A stretch of DNA of 39,985 nt from Promethearchaeota archaeon (GCA_029838195.1 JALGVJ010000032.1:1-39985), one strand, 5' to 3'. Positions 825-27,779 are shown, counted from the stretch's first letter. Numbers and translations: made by a program. The notes: generated by a model not told the origin, from the sequence alone.

Positions 825-3083
825 ATGAAAGACGCTGAATTAAAAATAATCAGAACGGCATGTCCGGCTCATTGTGGCATTGATTGCTGTGGTATTTTAG
901 CTCACGTGAAAGATGGAAGAATTATAAAAGTAGAACCGGCAGATTTTCCGAATGAAAGAGACAAAAGAATATGCTTGAGAGGTTTAGCAAGTATAGATAT
1001 TACATATCATCCTGATAGGTTAAAATATCCTTTAAAACGCGTGGGAGCGCGAGGGGAAGGAAAATTTGAACGCATTTCGTGGGAGGAGGCATATGACATC
1101 ATCATCCAAAATTTTCGTAAAATAGCGGACAAACATGGATGGCGATCGATAGGATGGGTCTTAGGAGGGCCGGGAGCAGGTACCACGAAATTTGGGGCAT
1201 ATTTGAGAATTGCAAGCTTAACACAATCAACTCGAGTAAGTGCGTGGGGATACGGCGATGCAGGCCTCCCTTGTGGAAGCCGAATCATTTTTGGCAGTCA
1301 TTTTCCCTATATTTACTTGTTTGGAAAATTCTGGCAGAGACAATACCCCGATCTATTAATCGTGTGGGGCACGAATCCTGCCGAGAGCATGCCCTTACAG
1401 ACCATGAGAAAAATATTAGAAGCTCGAGAAATCGGCACGCAAGTCGTCGTGATTGATCCCAGGTTCACGGTAACTGCCTCAAAAGCAGATGAATATATCG
1501 GACTGAAGCCTTCAACGGATAGCGCACTTGCTTTAGGATTAATGAACGTGATTTTTGAAAAAAATCTTCATGACGTGGATTTTATTCGACAGCATACCAA
1601 TGGACCGTATTTAGTGAGGTTGGACAATGGAAAACTCTTAAGAGGTAAGGATATAGGCGAGAAAAAAGCGAATGCCTATATCATCTGGGATGAAAAAAGC
1701 GATAGTGCTAAAAAGGTTCGAAGAAGCAACGTGATGGACGCCCGCCTAACAAGAGAGTTCGAAATTAATGGAATAAAATGCAAACCAGTATTACAACTCC
1801 TCATGGACCTTGCAAAAGAATACACGCCAGAAAAAACAGAAGAAATCACGGGTGTACCTGCCTCATTGATCAGAAAATTAGGAGAAAAAATCGGTTTGAC
1901 AAAAAATACCACGTTCTATACTTACATGGGATTTACTCGAACATATCATGGAGACATCTCATTAAGGAGCATGGCAACCGTAGCAAGCATTACCGGAAAC
2001 GTGTCCACGTCATTTACTTCGGGATACGTGCCCGCTGTTCTTAATTGGGATCCCTTTTTAAAAGCCGTTCCGGACAAGCCCTCTTTCCATCGATTAGGTA
2101 TTTTAAACCTTTATGATGCCGTGATTTCGGGAAAACCCTATCCCATTCGGGCAGCATGGTTTGCCTTTATCAATTTTTTGAATCAATGTGTTAATTGTAA
2201 TAAACTAATAAAGGAATTTTATCCTAAATTAGAATTCATAGTTCAAACGGAATTATTCATGACACCCAGTGCTCGATATGCTGACATAGTGCTTCCCGTT
2301 TGTTCTTTCTATGAGTTTTCCGATTTTCTCCCCCATCCTTATCCCTACCTTCAATTACAGCAAAAAATTATTGAACCTTTATACGAATCAAAATCCGATG
2401 TGACCATCGTTAAAGAACTCGCAGAAAGAATGGGTTTTGGAGAATATTTTAAAGGAGGCGAAGAAGGAATGATCGACTTAATCATGGATCATCCTTCTTT
2501 AGAAGGAATTACTCGGGAAACATTAAAAAATTCAGCAAAATTATTGAGAGAACTTCCCGAAGGAAGTAACTTTCCCCTAAATTTCTCCACTCCTTCGGGA
2601 AAAATTGAACTATATGCGGAACAGTTAGTAGAAGATGGCCAAGCTTTACCTGTTTATTTGGAACCAATCGAAGCACCGATTGGCTCAAAAAAGACAAAAT
2701 ATCCATTAACCTTCATTCAAGGCCACACGCGCTACAGAACTCATTCCATGTTTGCAAACGTGTCCCCCATTAAAGACCTTTCTTCAGAACCTTTCGTGGA
2801 GATAAATCCCATTGATGCGGTGGCTCGAAACATTCAAGATGGTGATGAGGTAATTGTTTTTAATGATAGAGGCCGGATGATATTAAAAGCGAAGCTCACT
2901 GAAAGCGTCGGCCCGGGAGTTATAAATATAACAGAAGGATGGTGGATCGATCAATTCAAAAAAGGAAGCGTCAATCATTTAACTCACGATATCATTAATC
3001 CCGTACAAAATAAAATCTATGAACCCAACATGCACATGAATGATGTGGCGGTAGAAATAATTAAAAAGGAGGAAGGAGTTTAA
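825..3083 (+). CDS. Molybdopterin (Mo/W-bisPGD) oxidoreductase catalytic subunit, DMSO reductase superfamily
   Basis: N-terminal Fe-S motif CPAHCGIDCC...ICLRG, RLKYPLKRVG, WGTNPAES, VIDPRFT, YADIVLP, TPSGKIE, C-terminal RTHSMF...INPIDA dinucleotide-binding domain; GAGGT upstream of the ATG. Confidence 0.93.
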   Translation: MKDAELKIIRTACPAHCGIDCCGILAHVKDGRIIKVEPADFPNERDKRICLRGLASIDITYHPDRLKYPLKRVGARGEGKFERISWEEAYDIIIQNFRKIADKHGWRSIGWVLGGPGAGTTKFGAYLRIASLTQSTRVSAWGYGDAGLPCGSRIIFGSHFPYIYLFGKFWQRQYPDLLIVWGTNPAESMPLQTMRKILEAREIGTQVVVIDPRFTVTASKADEYIGLKPSTDSALALGLMNVIFEKNLHDVDFIRQHTNGPYLVRLDNGKLLRGKDIGEKKANAYIIWDEKSDSAKKVRRSNVMDARLTREFEINGIKCKPVLQLLMDLAKEYTPEKTEEITGVPASLIRKLGEKIGLTKNTTFYTYMGFTRTYHGDISLRSMATVASITGNVSTSFTSGYVPAVLNWDPFLKAVPDKPSFHRLGILNLYDAVISGKPYPIRAAWFAFINFLNQCVNCNKLIKEFYPKLEFIVQTELFMTPSARYADIVLPVCSFYEFSDFLPHPYPYLQLQQKIIEPLYESKSDVTIVKELAERMGFGEYFKGGEEGMIDLIMDHPSLEGITRETLKNSAKLLRELPEGSNFPLNFSTPSGKIELYAEQLVEDGQALPVYLEPIEAPIGSKKTKYPLTFIQGHTRYRTHSMFANVSPIKDLSSEPFVEINPIDAVARNIQDGDEVIVFNDRGRMILKAKLTESVGPGVINITEGWWIDQFKKGSVNHLTHDIINPVQNKIYEPNMHMNDVAVEIIKKEEGV

Positions 3084-3085
3084 AA

Positions 3086-3664
3086 ATGAAAAAGAAATTT
3101 GTCATGATCATAGATCAAAACAGGTGTATCGGCTGCGATTGCTGCACGATCGCCTGCATAAAAGAAAATAATACTCCTTATCATTGGATCGAAGTAGAAA
3201 CCTTAAATACTCCTAACAAAGACACACCACAAGGGAAATTTCCCGAACTCACCATGGACTTTTTACCCAAGCTTTGCAATCATTGTAGCAATCCTCCATG
3301 CGTTTCAGCCTGTCCGGTGGATGCAATTCAAAAAAGGGAAGACGGAATTGTTGTCATCCTTAAAGAACATTGTGACGGTTGCCAATTATGCCTGAATGCT
3401 TGTCCTTACGGAATCATTAAATTCAATGATGTGATGAGCGTTGCCGAAAAATGCAATTTTTGCGTGCACCGTGTAGAACAAGGTCTTGAACCGTTTTGCG
3501 TGACTTGCTGTGAGGGGCAGGCGATCTATTTTGGGGATATAAACGATAAAGAATGTAAGATTTCTCAATTACTTGTTGAATTAAAAACATTTGTTCTCTT
3601 GCCCGAAAAAGGAACGGATCCCAACGTGTATTACATTCCTCCGCGACCAAGAAAAAGATTTTGA
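3086..3664 (+). CDS. Four-cluster [4Fe-4S] electron-transfer subunit (DmsB/NrfC-like)
   Basis: CIGCDCCTIAC, CNHCSNPPCVSACP, CDGCQLCLNACPY, KCNFC...PFCVTCC; begins 2 nt after the catalytic-subunit stop. Confidence 0.93.
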   Translation: MKKKFVMIIDQNRCIGCDCCTIACIKENNTPYHWIEVETLNTPNKDTPQGKFPELTMDFLPKLCNHCSNPPCVSACPVDAIQKREDGIVVILKEHCDGCQLCLNACPYGIIKFNDVMSVAEKCNFCVHRVEQGLEPFCVTCCEGQAIYFGDINDKECKISQLLVELKTFVLLPEKGTDPNVYYIPPRPRKRF

Positions 3665-10442: not shown

Positions 10443-11459
10443 ATGCTAAAACAGCTCTGGAGGTATTTAAGTGAGATTGGTTTGTCCGACATTCAAATCC
10501 ATCTATATGAATTCATCCTAAGAAATATAACCGCCACGATTAATGAAATAAAGGAGGCATTACATTATTCATACGCTCAAGTTAATTATAACATGTCCGT
10601 TTTAGAGGAAAAAGGATTAATTTTTTCTTCTAAAGGAAAAGATAAACAATATCATCGTATAGATCCGAAAATTGCGTTAAATAGAATCTTGGAGGATCGT
10701 TATAAAAGATATCAAGAACAAATTAATGCCCTTGAAGAATATTTAAAAGCCGAAGAAAGTGAGAGAGGGGCATGTTATAAACATTTAACATTTTATCATT
10801 ATTCCGACGTGAATCTGGCCATGGAAAATATTATTAAGTTAATTAAAAATGCAAGAGAAGAGATATGCATGTCTTCTTTACCTCCTACTTTTTTGAAAAA
10901 CATCGAGGGCGCTCTCCATGAAGCTTATTTGCGGGGAGTTAAAATCGAATTGTATTATTCCACTCGGGATTTTATTGAAATAACTAACTATTTTGAACTA
11001 ATCACGAATATTTTAAGAAGAATACGATTAACCATCATTGAGACGGAAGAAAAAACGTGCCAATTACTCCGATATAATGATATCATTGCCAACAATGGTA
11101 TCTTGTTAATAGATGATCTTTATTTTAATTCCATTATCTATTTAGACGAAAACTTTTTTCATTTCAACGGATTTACGGATTCCCATTTAGTAAAAACGGT
11201 CAAAAAATTCCTTCGGATTAAAACGGTCATGAAACGAGTAAAAATGGAACATCCAGAGTCCGTTAAACGGGTAATAAACATCATCCAAGAAAATGAAGGC
11301 ATTAGTACGAGAGAGATTGGACTAAAATCTAAAATTAGTGGTACCAAATTAAGAGAAATATTGGATTCACTTCTCGCAGAAGGTATCATTAAGGAAACCA
11401 AGAGTAAGAGTACGATGGGAGGCAAACCTAGAAAGGAATATTCCTTCATTAAAAATTAG
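10443..11459 (+). CDS. TrmB-family transcriptional regulator
   Basis: N-terminal wHTH (LSEIGLSD...LEEKGLI...YHRIDP), effector domain (LIKNAREEI...AYLRGVKI) and an extra C-terminal wHTH (GISTREI...LLAEGII...GGKPRKEY). Confidence 0.8.
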   Translation: MLKQLWRYLSEIGLSDIQIHLYEFILRNITATINEIKEALHYSYAQVNYNMSVLEEKGLIFSSKGKDKQYHRIDPKIALNRILEDRYKRYQEQINALEEYLKAEESERGACYKHLTFYHYSDVNLAMENIIKLIKNAREEICMSSLPPTFLKNIEGALHEAYLRGVKIELYYSTRDFIEITNYFELITNILRRIRLTIIETEEKTCQLLRYNDIIANNGILLIDDLYFNSIIYLDENFFHFNGFTDSHLVKTVKKFLRIKTVMKRVKMEHPESVKRVINIIQENEGISTREIGLKSKISGTKLREILDSLLAEGIIKETKSKSTMGGKPRKEYSFIKN

Positions 11460-11617
11460 TTTAAAGAACAAGGTGCTTGTTCCTCATTTTTTTTTTAAGA
11501 TCTAAATTGCTTGCTTAAAGAGAAAATACAAAAATAAATATTATTTATTTGTTAATGATTATAATTCATTAGGGAAAATTATTAATTAAAAATAGCAATT
11601 AAAAGAAGGTATGGAGC

Positions 11618-13321
11618 TTGGGAGCGCAAGATTTAGAAATTTATAATCTAAATTATTCAGGAGCATTTAACAAGATGAGCTCTAACGTGGCTCCTCTAGA
11701 ATTATTCTCTTTATATAATATTCTAGCAGTTTATGTTTATAATAAGAAAAAAATGTATATCTGGATTGGAAAGAATGTTGCTAATAGTTTAAAAATTTAT
11801 ATTCCAAATATTCGAGCATTATTTTTGGAAGAATTTCCTGAAAAGAAGATCCTAAGGAACATAACTATTGAGTCAGGATTTGAAACAGCAGAATTTTTGG
11901 AGAATTTCGATTTTTCTAAAGAAGAATTAATGGCGCATCTTAAAAAGCAAGAGAATAAAGTAAATCCCGTTCTTTCCAAGATCAATGAAATGAAAGAGGA
12001 AATAGAATATCTCATTGAAACGGAGAATTATGATACTGCAATCGCAAGAGTAAGAGAAATCATTGAACTGGCTCGAGCTATTGAAGATCAAGCATTAGTA
12101 AGGGACCAAGAAAATTTAATTGATCGCATTAAAGAACTCAAGCACAGAAAAGAAATTGATATCATCGCAAGGATAGATGAGTTAAGAATAGTCAAACAAA
12201 ATCATTCTCAAATTGGTAATTATAATAATGCCATTCAAGCAGCGAGAGAAATCATCAGCCTGGCGAAATCGGCTAATCTCGAATTGATAATTAGAGAAGA
12301 GGAGGAATTTATTGCAAGATTCACGGGGAAATATGATCCACAGAAATTGGTAATTAAAGCGAGAGAAACAAGCTTGAAATTGAAAAAACAACAAGAAGAA
12401 TTGCTAGCAAATAACAAGATTCAAGAAGCTCATGCATTAGTTGCGGATTTCATTGAGAAGTATGGAAGATTTTGTGATTTGACAAAAATTCTTTCAGCGA
12501 AAACCGTATTAGACAAGGATAAAATCACATGGAAGGACTTTCTTGAAACGAGAGAGAAAATGAAGCAAGAATTAGCTGATCTCGAAAAGCAATATCTCCA
12601 AGCTGTAAAGTTAAATAACGCTAGGAAAGCATTAACTATTCTTGATACCGCTTGGAACATTCTTTTTTCAATAAATGATGACGAATTGACAAGGAAATGG
12701 GCACAATTAGAAGAAGATTCCTCCATAATTTCTAAAAAGAGAGAAAAAGAAGAAAAATCGGAATTAATACGGGAGCTCGAGCAATCGATAAATCTTAATT
12801 TACACGAACTAAATAAAGAACAATTGAAAGAACAGAGTTCTAATTTCAAGAAATATATTGAATTTGCACGGGGAAATAATCTTGATGATTTACTAAATGA
12901 ATTATCGAGCAAGAATGAAGAATTATTAATACGAATTAATGAACTTGAGAAAATAGAGCAAGAAATAATGCGATTGGAGCCAGAATTAAAAAATGCTCGA
13001 AATGAAAATGATTTTAATAGTGCCATTACTATTTGTGAATCATTAATTGCTCTCTCTAAGCAAATGAGTTCAATAGATCTTGTCGAAAAATATCAAGAGC
13101 TATTAAAAGCCATTAAAAATGAAAAGGAATCTTTAGAGAAAAAAAAAATAGAAAATCGGCAAAAAAAGCAGCAAGTTGAACAATTTAAAAAGAACATTAG
13201 AGAGCTAAATGAAGAGGGAAAGCAATTTTTTTTTCAGGGAGACTTAAAAAAATCCCTACAAACGTATCAAAAAATCATTGCATTATTTAATGATTTTAAA
13301 AAGTTAACTATTCAACAATGA
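11618..13321 (+). CDS. Gelsolin-like domain fused to a long helical-repeat rod
   Basis: Residues ~1-100 carry MYIWIGK and IESGFETAEFLENF, matching the gelsolin-domain consensus (YxWxG...EGxExxxF). The rest is helical repeats such as ENYDTAI, GNYNNAI, NDFNSAI. TTG start with GGAG upstream. Confidence 0.7.
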   Translation: MGAQDLEIYNLNYSGAFNKMSSNVAPLELFSLYNILAVYVYNKKKMYIWIGKNVANSLKIYIPNIRALFLEEFPEKKILRNITIESGFETAEFLENFDFSKEELMAHLKKQENKVNPVLSKINEMKEEIEYLIETENYDTAIARVREIIELARAIEDQALVRDQENLIDRIKELKHRKEIDIIARIDELRIVKQNHSQIGNYNNAIQAAREIISLAKSANLELIIREEEEFIARFTGKYDPQKLVIKARETSLKLKKQQEELLANNKIQEAHALVADFIEKYGRFCDLTKILSAKTVLDKDKITWKDFLETREKMKQELADLEKQYLQAVKLNNARKALTILDTAWNILFSINDDELTRKWAQLEEDSSIISKKREKEEKSELIRELEQSINLNLHELNKEQLKEQSSNFKKYIEFARGNNLDDLLNELSSKNEELLIRINELEKIEQEIMRLEPELKNARNENDFNSAITICESLIALSKQMSSIDLVEKYQELLKAIKNEKESLEKKKIENRQKKQQVEQFKKNIRELNEEGKQFFFQGDLKKSLQTYQKIIALFNDFKKLTIQQ

Positions 13322-13367
13322 GTAAAAAATTCATTAGACCATGACTAAAAAATAACTGCGTGAAATC

Positions 13368-15788
13368 ATGAGTGAGCAAATAGAAGAGATTTTTGAAAAA
13401 TTTAAAAATATTTTTAGTTCGCGTCAAGAAGAAATTAAAACGTTCTTGAAAAAACATTATGGTCATTTATTTAAAAATCAAATCATAGAAAATGTGGAGA
13501 AAATTGACGCCACCGAACGGATTGAAAAGGCGGGCTTTCATCCGGAACTCTCAAGTTGGAAAAATATTTATGGAAATATCATTGTTAGTTCCTGTGAGAT
13601 AATAAATGGCAAAAAAGTACGATATGACTATAAATTTTCTTTTGTTGAGGAAAAATTAAGCGAGGAGAAAATTGAAATTGTAGAAAATGCGTTAAATGAA
13701 GTTAAAAACTTAGAATCAAAATTATTATTTGATGATGCTATTGCGAAAGTTGATGAGATTATAGAATTTATTCGGTTAGATGATGATAAAGTATTTAACA
13801 AGAGGTTAAACGACCGCCGTCGGGAAATAATTTCTGCAAAGCAAGATTTTGAAGATTCCATGGGAAAAATCCGCTTATTGGAAGAAAAATTGGAGGAGCA
13901 AAAAGAAGCAAATGATTTAAATGCGGCAATAATTACATGCGAAAAAATTTTTGAGATTTCCCGTTCGATAAAAAATGTTGAATTAATTAAGAAATTCAGG
14001 GATAAATTAGAAAAATTTAAAAAGAAACAAGCTGCTCTAGAGGAAATTGAAACATTAGAAACTAAATTGAAAGAATATCAAAAGCAGGGAAATTTAGAAG
14101 GTGCTCTTGAGAAATGTGATGAAATTCTTAAAATTATTCAACGATCAAGAGAGCCATCTCTCCTTAAGAAATTTTCAGATATTAAACGAGATCTTGAAAA
14201 AACTCTTGATTTATTAAAGCAAGAGCGGGAAAAAACTTTATCAACCATTTCAGAATTGGAAAAAGAAGTTGAATCTTTTCAGGCGGAAGGGAATTTTGAA
14301 ATGATTATAAATCATTGTGAAAAGATCATCTTTCTTTCAAACCAGATTAATGAGCCTGCTATAGCTGAAAAGCATGTAAAAATAAGGGAAAAAACGGAAG
14401 AAAAAGTAAAAATTTTAGCTAAAATAAAGGACTTGGCTAAAGAATTAGAAGAATTAAGGGCATCTAAGAATTTTAATGATGCCCTTAAAATCTCTGATCA
14501 AATTCTTGAGTCGTGTAAAAAAATTGAACGGGATGATCTAATTAAAAAATACTTAAACGTGAAAGAGAATATCCAAGAAAAAATCAAAGATTTGGAAGAA
14601 AGTAGAGAAAATCTCCTTCAAGAAATTAATAAAAATGAAAAAGAATTAGAAAACAAAAGAAATATTAAGGATTTTAAGGGAGCTCTAAATACGTGCGATA
14701 AACTCATTAACCTTACTTTAAAATTAGAAGATGAGGGTTTAAAAAATAAATATGAGATGATAAAGAAAGCTATTTTGGAAGAGAAAGCAGAATTAGAGGC
14801 TAAAAAAGAAAAAGAGAAAAAAGAGCAGCAATTATTACTAGAGAAAGCTCGGGAATTAAAAGATGTAATCCCATTCGAAGAAGAAGATGTTTTACCTCTC
14901 ATTGAAGAATTTTCCATAAATGAGATTTTAAAGGGAATTCCGGATGACCCCGATCTCCTTTTGGAAGAAATTAATACCCTGCTAGATTCACATCGAGTAG
15001 AAATTAAAGAAGAATTGAAAAATAAAACGCTATTACGCAGTTCCTCCGGAGAACTTTTGGAATTGAATAAAGAAATGAAAATAAAGCCCCCGGAGAAGGA
15101 ATCAAAGAAAAGTATCCATGAAGTTGCTTCGGGATTCGAAAATCCTTTTGATGAATATCTCGAAGAAGCCATTATCTCCGATATCATCCCATTCAATTAT
15201 GAAATTGAGAAAATTGAATTAAATGGCGAGGAAGTAAAAAACATGGTGGAAAAATCTCTAAAGAAAGAAGGATTAGAGCTCAATTGGCAATTTACTAATG
15301 TCCCACCAAAAGAGAAAATGGTCATTAATTACGATTTAAGAAGAAGAGTTTCAAGAACTATAATTTTCATGCTTAAGGATCAACTGAAAATAATTAAAAC
15401 TCATTCAAGATTAAAACAATTGGGATTTGAAGGCCTTTATGAAGCAGAATTACCTTTTACCAACAATTTTGGAGAACTTGAAGGTGTAGTAGTGGAAGAT
15501 ATCATTCCTCTTTATTATCTTCATGTCATACAAAAACCTAAAGATGAATTACCTGCTGAAACCATCGTAGCAGATATGGGAGATATCATCAAGTGGAACA
15601 TTGGAACGATGAAAAATGAGACTAAAATTTACAATTACATGCTAATTGAATTATATCTTTTCGAAGAAACGAAAATACAATATGATCAATTAAATAGAAA
15701 AGCCTTGGATGCATTAGAACAAGAAAATTTTGAGGAAAGTTTTGAAAAATTCAAGGCCATTAAAGATTTACTCGAAAAATTTACCTAA
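13368..15788 (+). CDS. Helical-repeat protein with two C-terminal Ig-like beta modules
   Basis: Tandem helical repeats, then two related modules: FENPFDEYLEEAIISDIIP...LNWQFTNVPPKEKMVINY and FTNNFGELEGVVVEDIIP...IKWNIGTMKNETKIYNY. Confidence 0.7.
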   Translation: MSEQIEEIFEKFKNIFSSRQEEIKTFLKKHYGHLFKNQIIENVEKIDATERIEKAGFHPELSSWKNIYGNIIVSSCEIINGKKVRYDYKFSFVEEKLSEEKIEIVENALNEVKNLESKLLFDDAIAKVDEIIEFIRLDDDKVFNKRLNDRRREIISAKQDFEDSMGKIRLLEEKLEEQKEANDLNAAIITCEKIFEISRSIKNVELIKKFRDKLEKFKKKQAALEEIETLETKLKEYQKQGNLEGALEKCDEILKIIQRSREPSLLKKFSDIKRDLEKTLDLLKQEREKTLSTISELEKEVESFQAEGNFEMIINHCEKIIFLSNQINEPAIAEKHVKIREKTEEKVKILAKIKDLAKELEELRASKNFNDALKISDQILESCKKIERDDLIKKYLNVKENIQEKIKDLEESRENLLQEINKNEKELENKRNIKDFKGALNTCDKLINLTLKLEDEGLKNKYEMIKKAILEEKAELEAKKEKEKKEQQLLLEKARELKDVIPFEEEDVLPLIEEFSINEILKGIPDDPDLLLEEINTLLDSHRVEIKEELKNKTLLRSSSGELLELNKEMKIKPPEKESKKSIHEVASGFENPFDEYLEEAIISDIIPFNYEIEKIELNGEEVKNMVEKSLKKEGLELNWQFTNVPPKEKMVINYDLRRRVSRTIIFMLKDQLKIIKTHSRLKQLGFEGLYEAELPFTNNFGELEGVVVEDIIPLYYLHVIQKPKDELPAETIVADMGDIIKWNIGTMKNETKIYNYMLIELYLFEETKIQYDQLNRKALDALEQENFEESFEKFKAIKDLLEKFT

Positions 15789-25783: not shown

Positions 25784-27193
25784 TTATTTTTTCTTTTTTT
25801 TAGGTTCGAGTTTTTTAATGATGATTGCTTCTGCATGAATTTTACAATTTTTCAAGATAATCTTGAAACCCCCCATTCCCCCAGCTCCGGGTATGGTTAA
25901 GGCTTGCGTCCCTATGGGAATCATAGCACCCGCCTCTTCCGCATATGCTTCTTCTTCCTCTTCTTCTTCGACTTCCTCTTTCCATGTTTTTACGATGGGG
26001 TGATCGTGTTCGATTAACCATTGTTTTAATTCACTCAGTTCAGCAACCTCTTCTTGCGTGGCAATCTTGTCTCTTATATCTTCTGGTAAGAAATCATAAA
26101 CGCGTTCCTTTACTGATTTGCCCATCCAAACAACGGTAGAGATTCCACCGTCATATTGCTGATACTTAGGCGAGATGATATATTGGATGCTTATGCCATT
26201 AAATCCCGGCATCTGTTTTCCCCCTCCGGTTTGGTTTGCCATGGCACTGAAAGGCAAACCATTAATTGCAACGCCTTCATGACTTCTATCGATGATTCCG
26301 TGTCCGTTTACTTCCGGAATGTAAAAATCAATAGCTTCGAAGCAGCCGCAAGAGGTATGCGGATATTCCATTCCCGAGTACAGATATACTCTGCTTAACT
26401 CTCCAAGAGAACGTTTTTTCATGGTTTCATTAATGCCGGTGTATTCTCCTGCTAATTTATTTAAACATTCTCCGGGAGGAATTTCAAAAATGGGTCCTTT
26501 AGGGTCGACCTTAGCAGCGGCTCGTGCATCGAACCAATTGATAGAGCCACAGAGCGAAGTACGGTCGGGGGTAATGCAACACACGTGCGTGGGAGCAAAA
26601 GATTGACAAAGCACGCAGCCATAAAACATGTCTACATCTTCATCGTGTAATCCTAGGGCTCTCTCATCTCTTTTGGAATAGGTTTCCATGGCCATTTCAT
26701 AAGGCTTTTCAATCTCTTTCTCATCCGTGATGATCGTGACTTGTGCCTGTTCTATAATCGGAAGTTCTGCTTTAAAGAGCCTGATTAATACTTGTCCAAG
26801 CATTTTAAAGGAATTAAAACCTTTTGCTACGGCCGTTTTGGAAATGCGCATCCAATTGGTATATCGCTGGTTTAAATGCATGACTCCATTAATAAAATTG
26901 CAAAACTCATGAATTCTTCTCTCAAATACTGCTTCTAAATCTTCTTCCAGTTGTTTTCCGGCAACTTCTACCAGAATACCAATGGGATATCGTGAGCCCT
27001 CTTCCATATCTTTGAGATCAGGTCCTTTCAGTATTACTTCTCCATCTTTTATCTGTTTAGCATCTCGAACCTTTACGAGCTCAAAATGTTTCTCTATTTT
27101 TGGTCCACCGAGCTCCACATACATTTGGTTTGCTCGAATTCTCTCTCCTTCGTATACAGGTCCAACATCCACAGGAATATCAGAAAAGCTCAT
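25784..27193 (-). CDS. cdhC: Acetyl-CoA decarbonylase/synthase complex beta subunit (acetyl-CoA synthase)
   Basis: YEGERIR, ERRIHEFCN, HLNQR, FYGCVLCQSFAPTHVC, HTSCGCFE A-cluster ligands, acidic linker; archaeal-type length without the bacterial N-terminal domain. Confidence 0.96.
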   Translation of the reverse strand: MSFSDIPVDVGPVYEGERIRANQMYVELGGPKIEKHFELVKVRDAKQIKDGEVILKGPDLKDMEEGSRYPIGILVEVAGKQLEEDLEAVFERRIHEFCNFINGVMHLNQRYTNWMRISKTAVAKGFNSFKMLGQVLIRLFKAELPIIEQAQVTIITDEKEIEKPYEMAMETYSKRDERALGLHDEDVDMFYGCVLCQSFAPTHVCCITPDRTSLCGSINWFDARAAAKVDPKGPIFEIPPGECLNKLAGEYTGINETMKKRSLGELSRVYLYSGMEYPHTSCGCFEAIDFYIPEVNGHGIIDRSHEGVAINGLPFSAMANQTGGGKQMPGFNGISIQYIISPKYQQYDGGISTVVWMGKSVKERVYDFLPEDIRDKIATQEEVAELSELKQWLIEHDHPIVKTWKEEVEEEEEEEAYAEEAGAMIPIGTQALTIPGAGGMGGFKIILKNCKIHAEAIIIKKLEPKKKKK

Positions 27194-27242
27194 TTTCTAA
27201 TTTAACTCTTTTAATTTTATTTTAACTTTATTAATTTTAACT

Positions 27243-27779
27243 TTATAATTTTTCGATTAATTTTTCTAAAAATTGTTTCCAATCCTCATTACTTAAATTA
27301 GGCAAGCTAAAACGAGCATTCGGATGGGAATACTTGTCTAAGTCTACAGTTTTCAGCCAATTCGTAAAATTCTTGAGCCTACTTAATGTTTGACTCACGT
27401 AGAATACTTGATGCCCACCAAAAATAGCCATTCTATATTGACCTTCGCCATCTAATCCCTGCCAATTCTTATCCGATAACCGATTGGTGATGTTAATTAA
27501 AGACATGTCAAATAACTTCTCTTCCGGAATTTTCTCTTTTAAATACTTATATGAATGCCCCGTCGATATCACGTGACAATCTAATTTATTCGCAATTTCT
27601 GCAAAATATTCAATGACTTGCTTGCCATCCAGCGTGAAATTCTTACTTAATGCTTCCGAACCAATGACGAAAACTTTTTTTATCGGTGCTTTTAATATAT
27701 TTGCCATAACTGCGGGATCATGAACTGAGGTACCCATTTCAGGGCCCGGGATGTTAGCTTTCTGGTATGGTCTAGCCAT
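27243..27779 (-). CDS. cdhB: Acetyl-CoA decarbonylase/synthase complex epsilon subunit
   Basis: ANIPGP, WQGLDGEGQY, YVSQTLSRLKNF, HPNARFSLPNL; directly upstream of cdhC. Confidence 0.9.
   Translation of the reverse strand: MARPYQKANIPGPEMGTSVHDPAVMANILKAPIKKVFVIGSEALSKNFTLDGKQVIEYFAEIANKLDCHVISTGHSYKYLKEKIPEEKLFDMSLINITNRLSDKNWQGLDGEGQYRMAIFGGHQVFYVSQTLSRLKNFTNWLKTVDLDKYSHPNARFSLPNLSNEDWKQFLEKLIEKL

Follow-up and report, generated by a model that had tools for sequence, protein, structure and literature searches.

P0001, a gelsolin-headed rod protein encoded beside its headless paralogue in an Asgard archaeon, as a candidate subunit of a Lokiactin-linked scaffold

What might an archaeon use a gelsolin-like domain for when that domain sits at the end of a long helical rod? 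This question is raised by P0001, a protein of 567 aa encoded in a 39,985-nucleotide stretch of DNA from a Promethearchaeota archaeon (GCA_029838195.1, JALGVJ010000032.1:1-39985); the whole stretch is called the window from here on. An initial annotation, made from the sequence without database searches, had regarded the protein as a candidate Asgard actin cross-linker or scaffold, and our literature search found no paper describing its family. The analysis of P0001, of its neighbour P0002 and of their relatives leads us to give about an even chance to the proposal that P0001 is the subunit which brings the gelsolin head to a heterodimeric rod scaffold attached to Lokiactin. The proposal concerns the following elements:

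11618..13321, + strand: gene for P0001, the 567-aa gelsolin-headed rod protein (66.7 kDa, pI 5.9)
11618..11917, + strand: gelsolin-fold head, residues 1-100, with the WxG signature at W49/G51 and a predicted long helix at 62-72 (profile, AlphaFold2, Foldseek and VIA)
11918..13318, + strand: helical rod, residues 101-567, predicted as about seven three-helix bundles with shared continuous long helices (AlphaFold2, DSSP and VIA)
13368..15788, + strand: partner gene P0002, encoding an 806-aa headless rod paralogue of P0001

The head was assigned both by profile and by model. When the profile of an alignment of 21 family members (A1, with a mean column identity of 63%) was compared with the PDB, nine sequences were matched and all nine belonged to the gelsolin family (gelsolin, villin, adseverin and Asgard gelsolins); the best matches were Lokiarchaeota 2DGel (E 5e-4) and Thorarchaeota ProGel (E 4e-3), followed by adseverin, villin and others. 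The AlphaFold2 model obtained from A1, with a predicted local distance difference test (pLDDT) score of 89 and a predicted template modelling (pTM) score of 0.82, contains strands at residues 6-11, 17-19, 35-40, 45-50 and 80-85 and helices at 62-72 and 91-94, which is the strand-helix order of a gelsolin domain. Foldseek returned 102 matches to this model at E<=0.001, the first being ProGel from its structure with actin (7c2f_B, E 1.4e-6), and VIA-align superposed the head on the same chain with a Z of 12.6 and a root-mean-square deviation (rmsd) of 1.9 Å over all 88 ProGel residues, at 17% identity in the structural alignment; the best 50 rows of the VIA-align comparison were all gelsolin-family. 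In the family alignment W49 is invariant and G51 is at least 90% conserved, and many other head residues, I62 and R66 on the predicted long helix among them, are invariant in proteins that are otherwise 30-50% identical; the WxG signature is said to have been used by Akil and colleagues in 2022 to recognise gelsolin domains. Together, the profile and the predicted structure confirm residues 1-100 as a true but divergent domain of the gelsolin/cofilin fold, nearest to the Asgard gelsolins.

The expected calcium-ligand positions, which are those of gelsolin domains generally, were not apparent in the head alignment in our own reading, made by eye without superposition. Because these positions seem not to be retained, calcium regulation of the P0001 head is unlikely. 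A short LKKQ stretch at residues 107-110 (11936-11947) follows the head, roughly where the WH2-like LRRV/LKDV of the Asgard 2DGels is located, and it sits inside a predicted long helix; it was considered as a WH2-like motif and rejected, as the family alignment shows no conservation of it.

The rod was dissected with a repeat hidden Markov model (HMM) seeded on six motif-centred segments, which together with the structure prediction delimits the following parts:

11975..12154, + strand: repeat 1, residues 120-179, with ENYDTAI at 136 (repeat HMM domain E 1.1e-20)
12167..12346, + strand: repeat 2, residues 184-243, with GNYNNAI at 200 (repeat HMM domain E 5.1e-20)
12347..12760, + strand: divergent helical stretch, residues 244-381 (weak repeat-HMM matches; helical in AlphaFold2)
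12761..12949, + strand: weak repeat copy, residues 382-444 (repeat HMM domain E 7.7e-4)
12959..13138, + strand: repeat, residues 448-507, with NDFNSAI at 464 (repeat HMM domain E 6.4e-21)
13172..13303, + strand: terminal helical hairpin, residues 519-562, GDLKKSLQTYQKII (matching the post-module hairpin of fused relatives; sub-threshold TPR_1)

The motif x-(N/D)-(Y/F)-x2-A-I-x6-I-x-L occurs at residues 136, 200 and 464, the first two copies being exactly 64 aa apart, and the HMM also detected a partial repeat copy at 525-562. The repeat signal in P0001 and P0002 is far above chance. Within the divergent stretch there is a variant motif, NNKIQEAHALV, common to P0001 and the headless partners of other genomes. 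In the full-length AlphaFold2 model, computed on an alignment of 34 sequences (A6), residues 101-566 are wholly helical, and DSSP divides them into alternating helices of about 40 and about 17 residues (101-134, 138-154, 158-198, 202-218 and so on to 543-566). Helices 158-198, 292-331, 355-391 and 423-462, with pLDDT values of about 88-93, each run through two bundles, and VIA places bundle limits at 118-181, 181-236, 313-368 and 445-513. Thus, the gelsolin-like N-terminus, the roughly 460 aa of helical repeats and the signature with its 64-aa spacing, all of which the initial annotation had read from the sequence, have held up, as has the Foldseek comparison that it proposed for residues 1-100.

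The same annotation had likened the protein to the spectrin/alpha-actinin design, and this likeness stands in part. P0001 shares with those proteins a putative actin-binding head placed on a rod of three-helix repeats with continuous inter-repeat helices, and the connectivity of the predicted rod is spectrin-like because each long helix ends one bundle and begins the next. The two paralogous chains encoded side by side also recall alpha and beta spectrin, by analogy only. The repeats themselves, on the other hand, are not those of spectrin: they measure about 64 aa, with helices of 17-20 residues, against about 106 aa, they have no sequence match to it, and the head of spectrin and alpha-actinin is formed by calponin-homology domains and not by a gelsolin fold. 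P0001 had no spectrin or MIT match in Pfam, and no spectrin chain was among the Foldseek and VIA matches listed, a listing that does not prove its absence. The resemblance of the rod to spectrin would be, at most, a convergent design.

An alternative likeness, to MIT and TPR bundles, had been suggested for the repeats as well, and for the single bundle it appears to be right. VIA-align superposed single repeats on three-helix bundles within 0.8-1.6 Å, designed minibinders included. Among these matches, the MIT domain of NRBF2 (2crb) gave a Z of 9.0 and an rmsd of 1.4 Å over 64 residues, and katanin chain 5lb7_B, presumably its MIT-like domain, a Z of 9.4 and 1.6 Å over 67 residues, both values lying below the Z of about 13 under which matches of helical bundles are non-specific. 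The tandem MIT domains of calpain-7 (8uc6) count among the closest known systems too, and the motif G-N-Y-x2-A-I resembles TPR helix B. Unlike MIT and TPR arrays, the predicted bundles of P0001 are chained by continuous helices, form no TPR superhelix, have no above-threshold Pfam match and lie in no ESCRT (endosomal sorting complex required for transport) context. Pfam TPR and designed-TPR matches for the rod were sub-threshold; TPR_1 matched the last repeat alone, with 15.7 bits against a cut-off of 27.8. A Foldseek search with the full-length model returned for the rod only TPR proteins and designed repeats, with TM scores of 0.17 or less; the rmsd of the matches to the LGN/Pins TPR domain was about 30 Å. 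The description of the bricks of the rod as MIT/TPR-like is thus partly right on the modelled structure, in their 64-aa size and in their signature. Nothing ties the gene to ESCRT, however, and this part of the earlier proposal found no support, as Pfam detected no ESCRT gene in the window.

The evidence for a two-subunit scaffold comes from the neighbouring gene. P0002 begins with a class-specific N-domain (residues 1-95); homologues of the P0001 repeats follow in six clean copies (103-477), and the C-terminal module (490-806) is strongly conserved. For the pair formed by the P0001 head and this N-domain, hhalign gave a probability of 8%, and the alignment of the N-domain (A3) had no significant match in the PDB by sequence. 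A headless rod gene lies directly 3' of the head gene, on the same strand, in 19 of the 19 related loci whose contig runs on, and in 8 further loci; the distance between the two genes ranges from an overlap to about 150 nt. The sizes of the two proteins vary widely, with pairs of about 350 aa and 322-392 aa, 540 aa and 317-331 aa, 770 aa and 656 aa, 643 aa and 686 aa, and 569 aa and 811 aa, the last being like the pair of the window. The wider flanks are shared with just one relative, the closest, so what is conserved as a unit is the pair alone. In its own genome P0001 has exactly one head of its subfamily and one module, adjoining and 46 nt apart.

A scan of 400 genomes of the phylum for the head subfamily (E<=1e-8) yielded matches in three families (82 of 134 genomes in f1, the only genome of f19 and 8 of 14 in f20) and in 0 of the 266 genomes outside the window's order; in this search, no member of the subfamily came from outside the order to which the window belongs. 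A scan of contigs gave 21 loci, none of them labelled Thorarchaeota: 20 carried Asgard or uncultured-archaeon labels and one the label of a bacterial metagenome-assembled genome (MAG).

Further information on the pair is provided by relatives in which its parts are fused. The homologues fall into three length classes, of about 350 aa, of 540-570 aa (the class of P0001) and of 760-920 aa, and the long class comprises head, rod and C-terminal module in one chain. Fused relatives of 761-794 aa are about 31% identical to residues 4-533 of P0001 and about 36% identical to residues 165-805 of P0002. At its end P0001 has a 36-aa hairpin with a counterpart in the fused protein P0030, where it comes after the module (residues 725-760; 39% identity over 36 aa, pairwise E 2e-7), and P0001 therefore looks like a fused form without its module. 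No other part of the family is as well conserved as the module: identity across 129 Asgard proteins is 41-62% (alignment A2) and the stretches NYDLRRRVSRT and VEDIIPLYYL are invariant. Compared by sequence with the PDB and Pfam, alignment A2 gave nothing significant. Proteins that bear the module begin in one of three ways, with the gelsolin head, with the P0002-type domain or with neither. The module was present in 0 of 54 and 0 of 42 cases in two large genera that retain the rod pair, and because these genera have the pair without it, the module is optional. Fused members are encoded in both closed genomes of family f20, of 4.36 and 6.04 Mb, the sizes of which fit P. syntrophicum MK-D1 and L. 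ossiferum B35.

These results suggest a model in which the head of P0001 would dock on Lokiactin, and the rods of P0001 and P0002 would pair side by side to form a heterodimer. Such a complex would hold the actin-binding head and the C-terminal module of P0002 on one stiff spacer, about 20 nm long as estimated from helix lengths. If the head docks and the rods pair in this manner, the complex would therefore act as an actin-linked scaffold or linker and not as a simple severing factor. A more elaborate version is a heterodimeric linker resembling a miniature spectrin, with the paralogous rods side by side, a gelsolin head that binds Lokiactin and a conserved module whose binding partner would be a membrane, a coat or cargo; we put it forward tentatively, at clearly less than an even chance.

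Published data bear on the association of this family with actin. A Lokiactin co-immunoprecipitation (Co-IP) table of L. ossiferum lists molecular masses (bioRxiv 10.1101/2025.11.30.690169, Supplementary Table 2). The two family members of the closed 6.04-Mb genome (G159) have computed monoisotopic masses of 98.39 and 102.90 kDa, and they were matched by mass to GNAMCCOK_03181 (98.39 kDa) and GNAMCCOK_02880 (102.90 kDa), the locus numbers of which fit the genome positions. GNAMCCOK_02880 was enriched with Lokiactin (log2 1.32, adjusted p 0.023; bioRxiv 10.1101/2025.11.30.690169). The candidate gene for it (L080:4921-7524, - strand, in G159) encodes an 867-aa protein whose head belongs to the subfamily of P0001 and is joined by one or two repeats and by the octad AREEAEQK, repeated in tandem about 45 times; the protein is not discussed as a gelsolin-homology protein in that report (bioRxiv 10.1101/2025.11.30.690169). 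Two conspicuous proteins enriched in the Co-IP, of 95.1 and 101.24 kDa, were considered as family members and rejected, as their masses do not match.

Several observations weigh against a Lokiactin-tied heterodimer. The evidence for pairing between P0001 and P0002 consists of gene order and paralogy, so the heterodimer itself stays putative. The full-length model of P0001 has a pLDDT of 88 and a pTM of 0.36, and for this reason the local structure of the rod is confident but its overall shape is uncertain. With respect to the head, Pfam PF00626 had no match to P0001 at E<=1, and a scan of the whole genome with this profile matched eight other places, the P0001 open reading frame not being among them. 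The Asp of the DWG motif described for gelsolin domains (PMC7444086) is replaced by Y in P0001 and by P in the family consensus, as judged by counting the register without superposition. The head also matches domains 3 and 6 of gelsolin-family proteins as well as it matches domain 1, in both Foldseek and VIA. Within gelsolin, actin is mainly bound by domains other than 3 and 6. Finally, GNAMCCOK_03181, the fused form by mass, was detected in the Co-IP with no significant Lokiactin enrichment (log2 0.78, p 0.34; bioRxiv 10.1101/2025.11.30.690169). As evidence for the actin association of the family, the L. ossiferum Co-IP is therefore indirect and mixed.

These objections leave room for other explanations. 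P0001 fits the loose architecture class of the Asgard 1DGelX/GelX proteins (KXH72031.1, PMC7444086; L. ossiferum B35_GelX, bioRxiv 10.1101/2025.11.30.690169), which are Asgard-specific and have one N-terminal gelsolin domain with a predicted helical or coiled-coil extension; by the definition of PMC7444086, the AlphaFold2 models of its head and full length place it there. It could, accordingly, be a regulator of actin dynamics of this type, with a head that caps, severs or nucleates, a helical tail on the filament side and a rod neighbour that is separate or modulating and not obligate. The Asgard proteins ProGel, 1DGelX and 2DGel act on actin in vitro, and 1DGelX of Thorarchaeota (KXH72031.1), which combines a gelsolin domain with a coiled-coil domain X, binds rabbit actin with a dissociation constant (Kd) of 7.7 µM and nucleates and severs independently of calcium, while ProGel binds rabbit actin very weakly, with a Kd of 337 µM (PMC7444086). 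In addition, the 350-aa relatives have a head that shares about 30% identity with ProGel across 67 residues, as counted from the alignment (E 0.0055). We nevertheless consider a stand-alone regulator unlikely. By the published descriptions, the extension of P0001 differs from that of 1DGelX/GelX in being a defined array of three-helix bundles, the P0001 gene invariably has that of a headless rod paralogue beside it, and the fused relatives carry an extra conserved module; this strict pairing and the fused module favour a scaffold. The restriction of the head subfamily to the window's order also speaks against it, and because the subfamily was found in none of the 266 genomes outside that order, the Thorarchaeota 1DGelX probably belongs to another subfamily. 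ProGel (7c2f) and domain 1 of the Asgard 2DGels (7whg, 7c2g) have the WxG in common with P0001 and are the best structural and profile matches of its head, the difference from ProGel being that in P0001 the gelsolin domain heads a much larger protein.

It has also to be considered that the head might not bind actin at all and might serve as a protein-protein module, as in Sec23/24, in which case the rods could scaffold trafficking parts such as GTPases and longins, or ESCRT-III through their MIT-like bundles. Sec23/Sec24 offer a precedent, as the same fold stands there within a larger non-gelsolin protein and, in that setting, is not known to bind actin, and Sec23/24 chains were among the Foldseek matches of the head; the MIT resemblance of single repeats and the lack of significant Lokiactin enrichment of the fused L. 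ossiferum relative would suit this explanation too. The Sec23/24 matches are far weaker, however (TM 0.38-0.41, rmsd about 9 Å), the other Sec23/24 domains are absent from P0001, and the nearest relatives of the head in sequence and structure are actin-binding Asgard gelsolins. Moreover, the MIT-like Z of about 9 lies within the non-specific range, no GTPase or longin gene was detected by Pfam in the window, as was the case for ESCRT, and one L. ossiferum protein whose head is of this subfamily co-purifies with Lokiactin. We therefore give a head without actin binding only a small chance. The remaining possibility is a homodimeric cross-linker of the alpha-actinin type, with antiparallel rods that place a head at each end and bundle filaments. 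Its appeal lies in the head-and-rod design with continuous inter-repeat helices and in the bundling observed for ProGel and 1DGelX in total internal reflection fluorescence (TIRF) assays (PMC7444086); even so, a conserved neighbour that is a rod without a head is easier to reconcile with a one-headed heterodimer, and we regard the homodimer as very improbable.

Returning to the scaffold of P0001 and P0002, a conserved and expressed pair, in which one rod is headed by a gelsolin domain and the other is headless, in some cases with a strongly conserved module, would be a concrete candidate for a Lokiactin linker. Our literature searches turned up no linker or scaffold between Lokiactin and other parts of the cell, and if the heterodimeric linker proves true, it would be a prokaryotic actin-to-something linker without a described counterpart. 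The family also illustrates that TPR/MIT-like units can give rise to a spectrin-like design in which a chain of three-helix bundles carries a head. The hypothesis is ready for the bench, because fused relatives occur in genomes that fit L. ossiferum and P. syntrophicum MK-D1, and both L. ossiferum candidates (GNAMCCOK_02880 and GNAMCCOK_03181) appear in a published whole-proteome table.

With regard to the gene itself, the open reading frame listing gives TTG as the start codon of P0001. The alignments of its homologues begin at residue 3-4, and the nearest of them, P0010, has an identical start position; for these reasons the TTG start is taken to be correct. The protein has no hydrophobic run longer than 5 residues and was therefore read as cytoplasmic. 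The immediate surroundings of the gene are:

10443-11459, + strand: TrmB-family regulator with a second C-terminal winged-helix domain, immediately upstream, with a T-run in between
11460..11617, + strand: upstream intergenic region, with a T-run after the TrmB-like gene and then AT-rich up to the TTG start (sequence read)
13322..13367, + strand: spacer of 46 nt between P0001 and P0002, without a long T-run (sequence read)

This arrangement indicates that P0001 and P0002 are probably co-transcribed, and that the intergenic region at 11460..11617 is likely the promoter of the two-gene unit. The TrmB-like regulator and a NAPRTase gene are retained as flanks of the pair in the closest relative alone, which places both outside the unit; the regulator is probably not dedicated to the rod pair. 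Apart from the pair, Pfam detected no cytoskeleton or trafficking genes in the window. Its surroundings at 825-3664 and 25784-27779 are metabolic, with a molybdopterin oxidoreductase with a 4Fe-4S subunit and the CODH/ACS beta and epsilon subunits, and further metabolic neighbours include three MFS transporters, NAPRTase and an N6 DNA methylase.

Elsewhere in the same genome, Pfam-level matches to gelsolin domains number at least six and are spread over five open frames (on contigs C6, C53, C54, C86 and C22); the one on C6 is an open frame of 367 aa with two gelsolin domains. The genome also has four actin-family genes (on C91, C49, C70 and C41), the Lokiactin on C91 being 381 aa long. As for the single locus with a bacterial label, contig DATKTW010000003.1 (L055, 22.9 kb) is filed as a Nanopelagicaceae bacterium MAG and carries a 352-aa head-rod gene with a 383-aa headless partner; it is probably a mis-binned Asgard contig.

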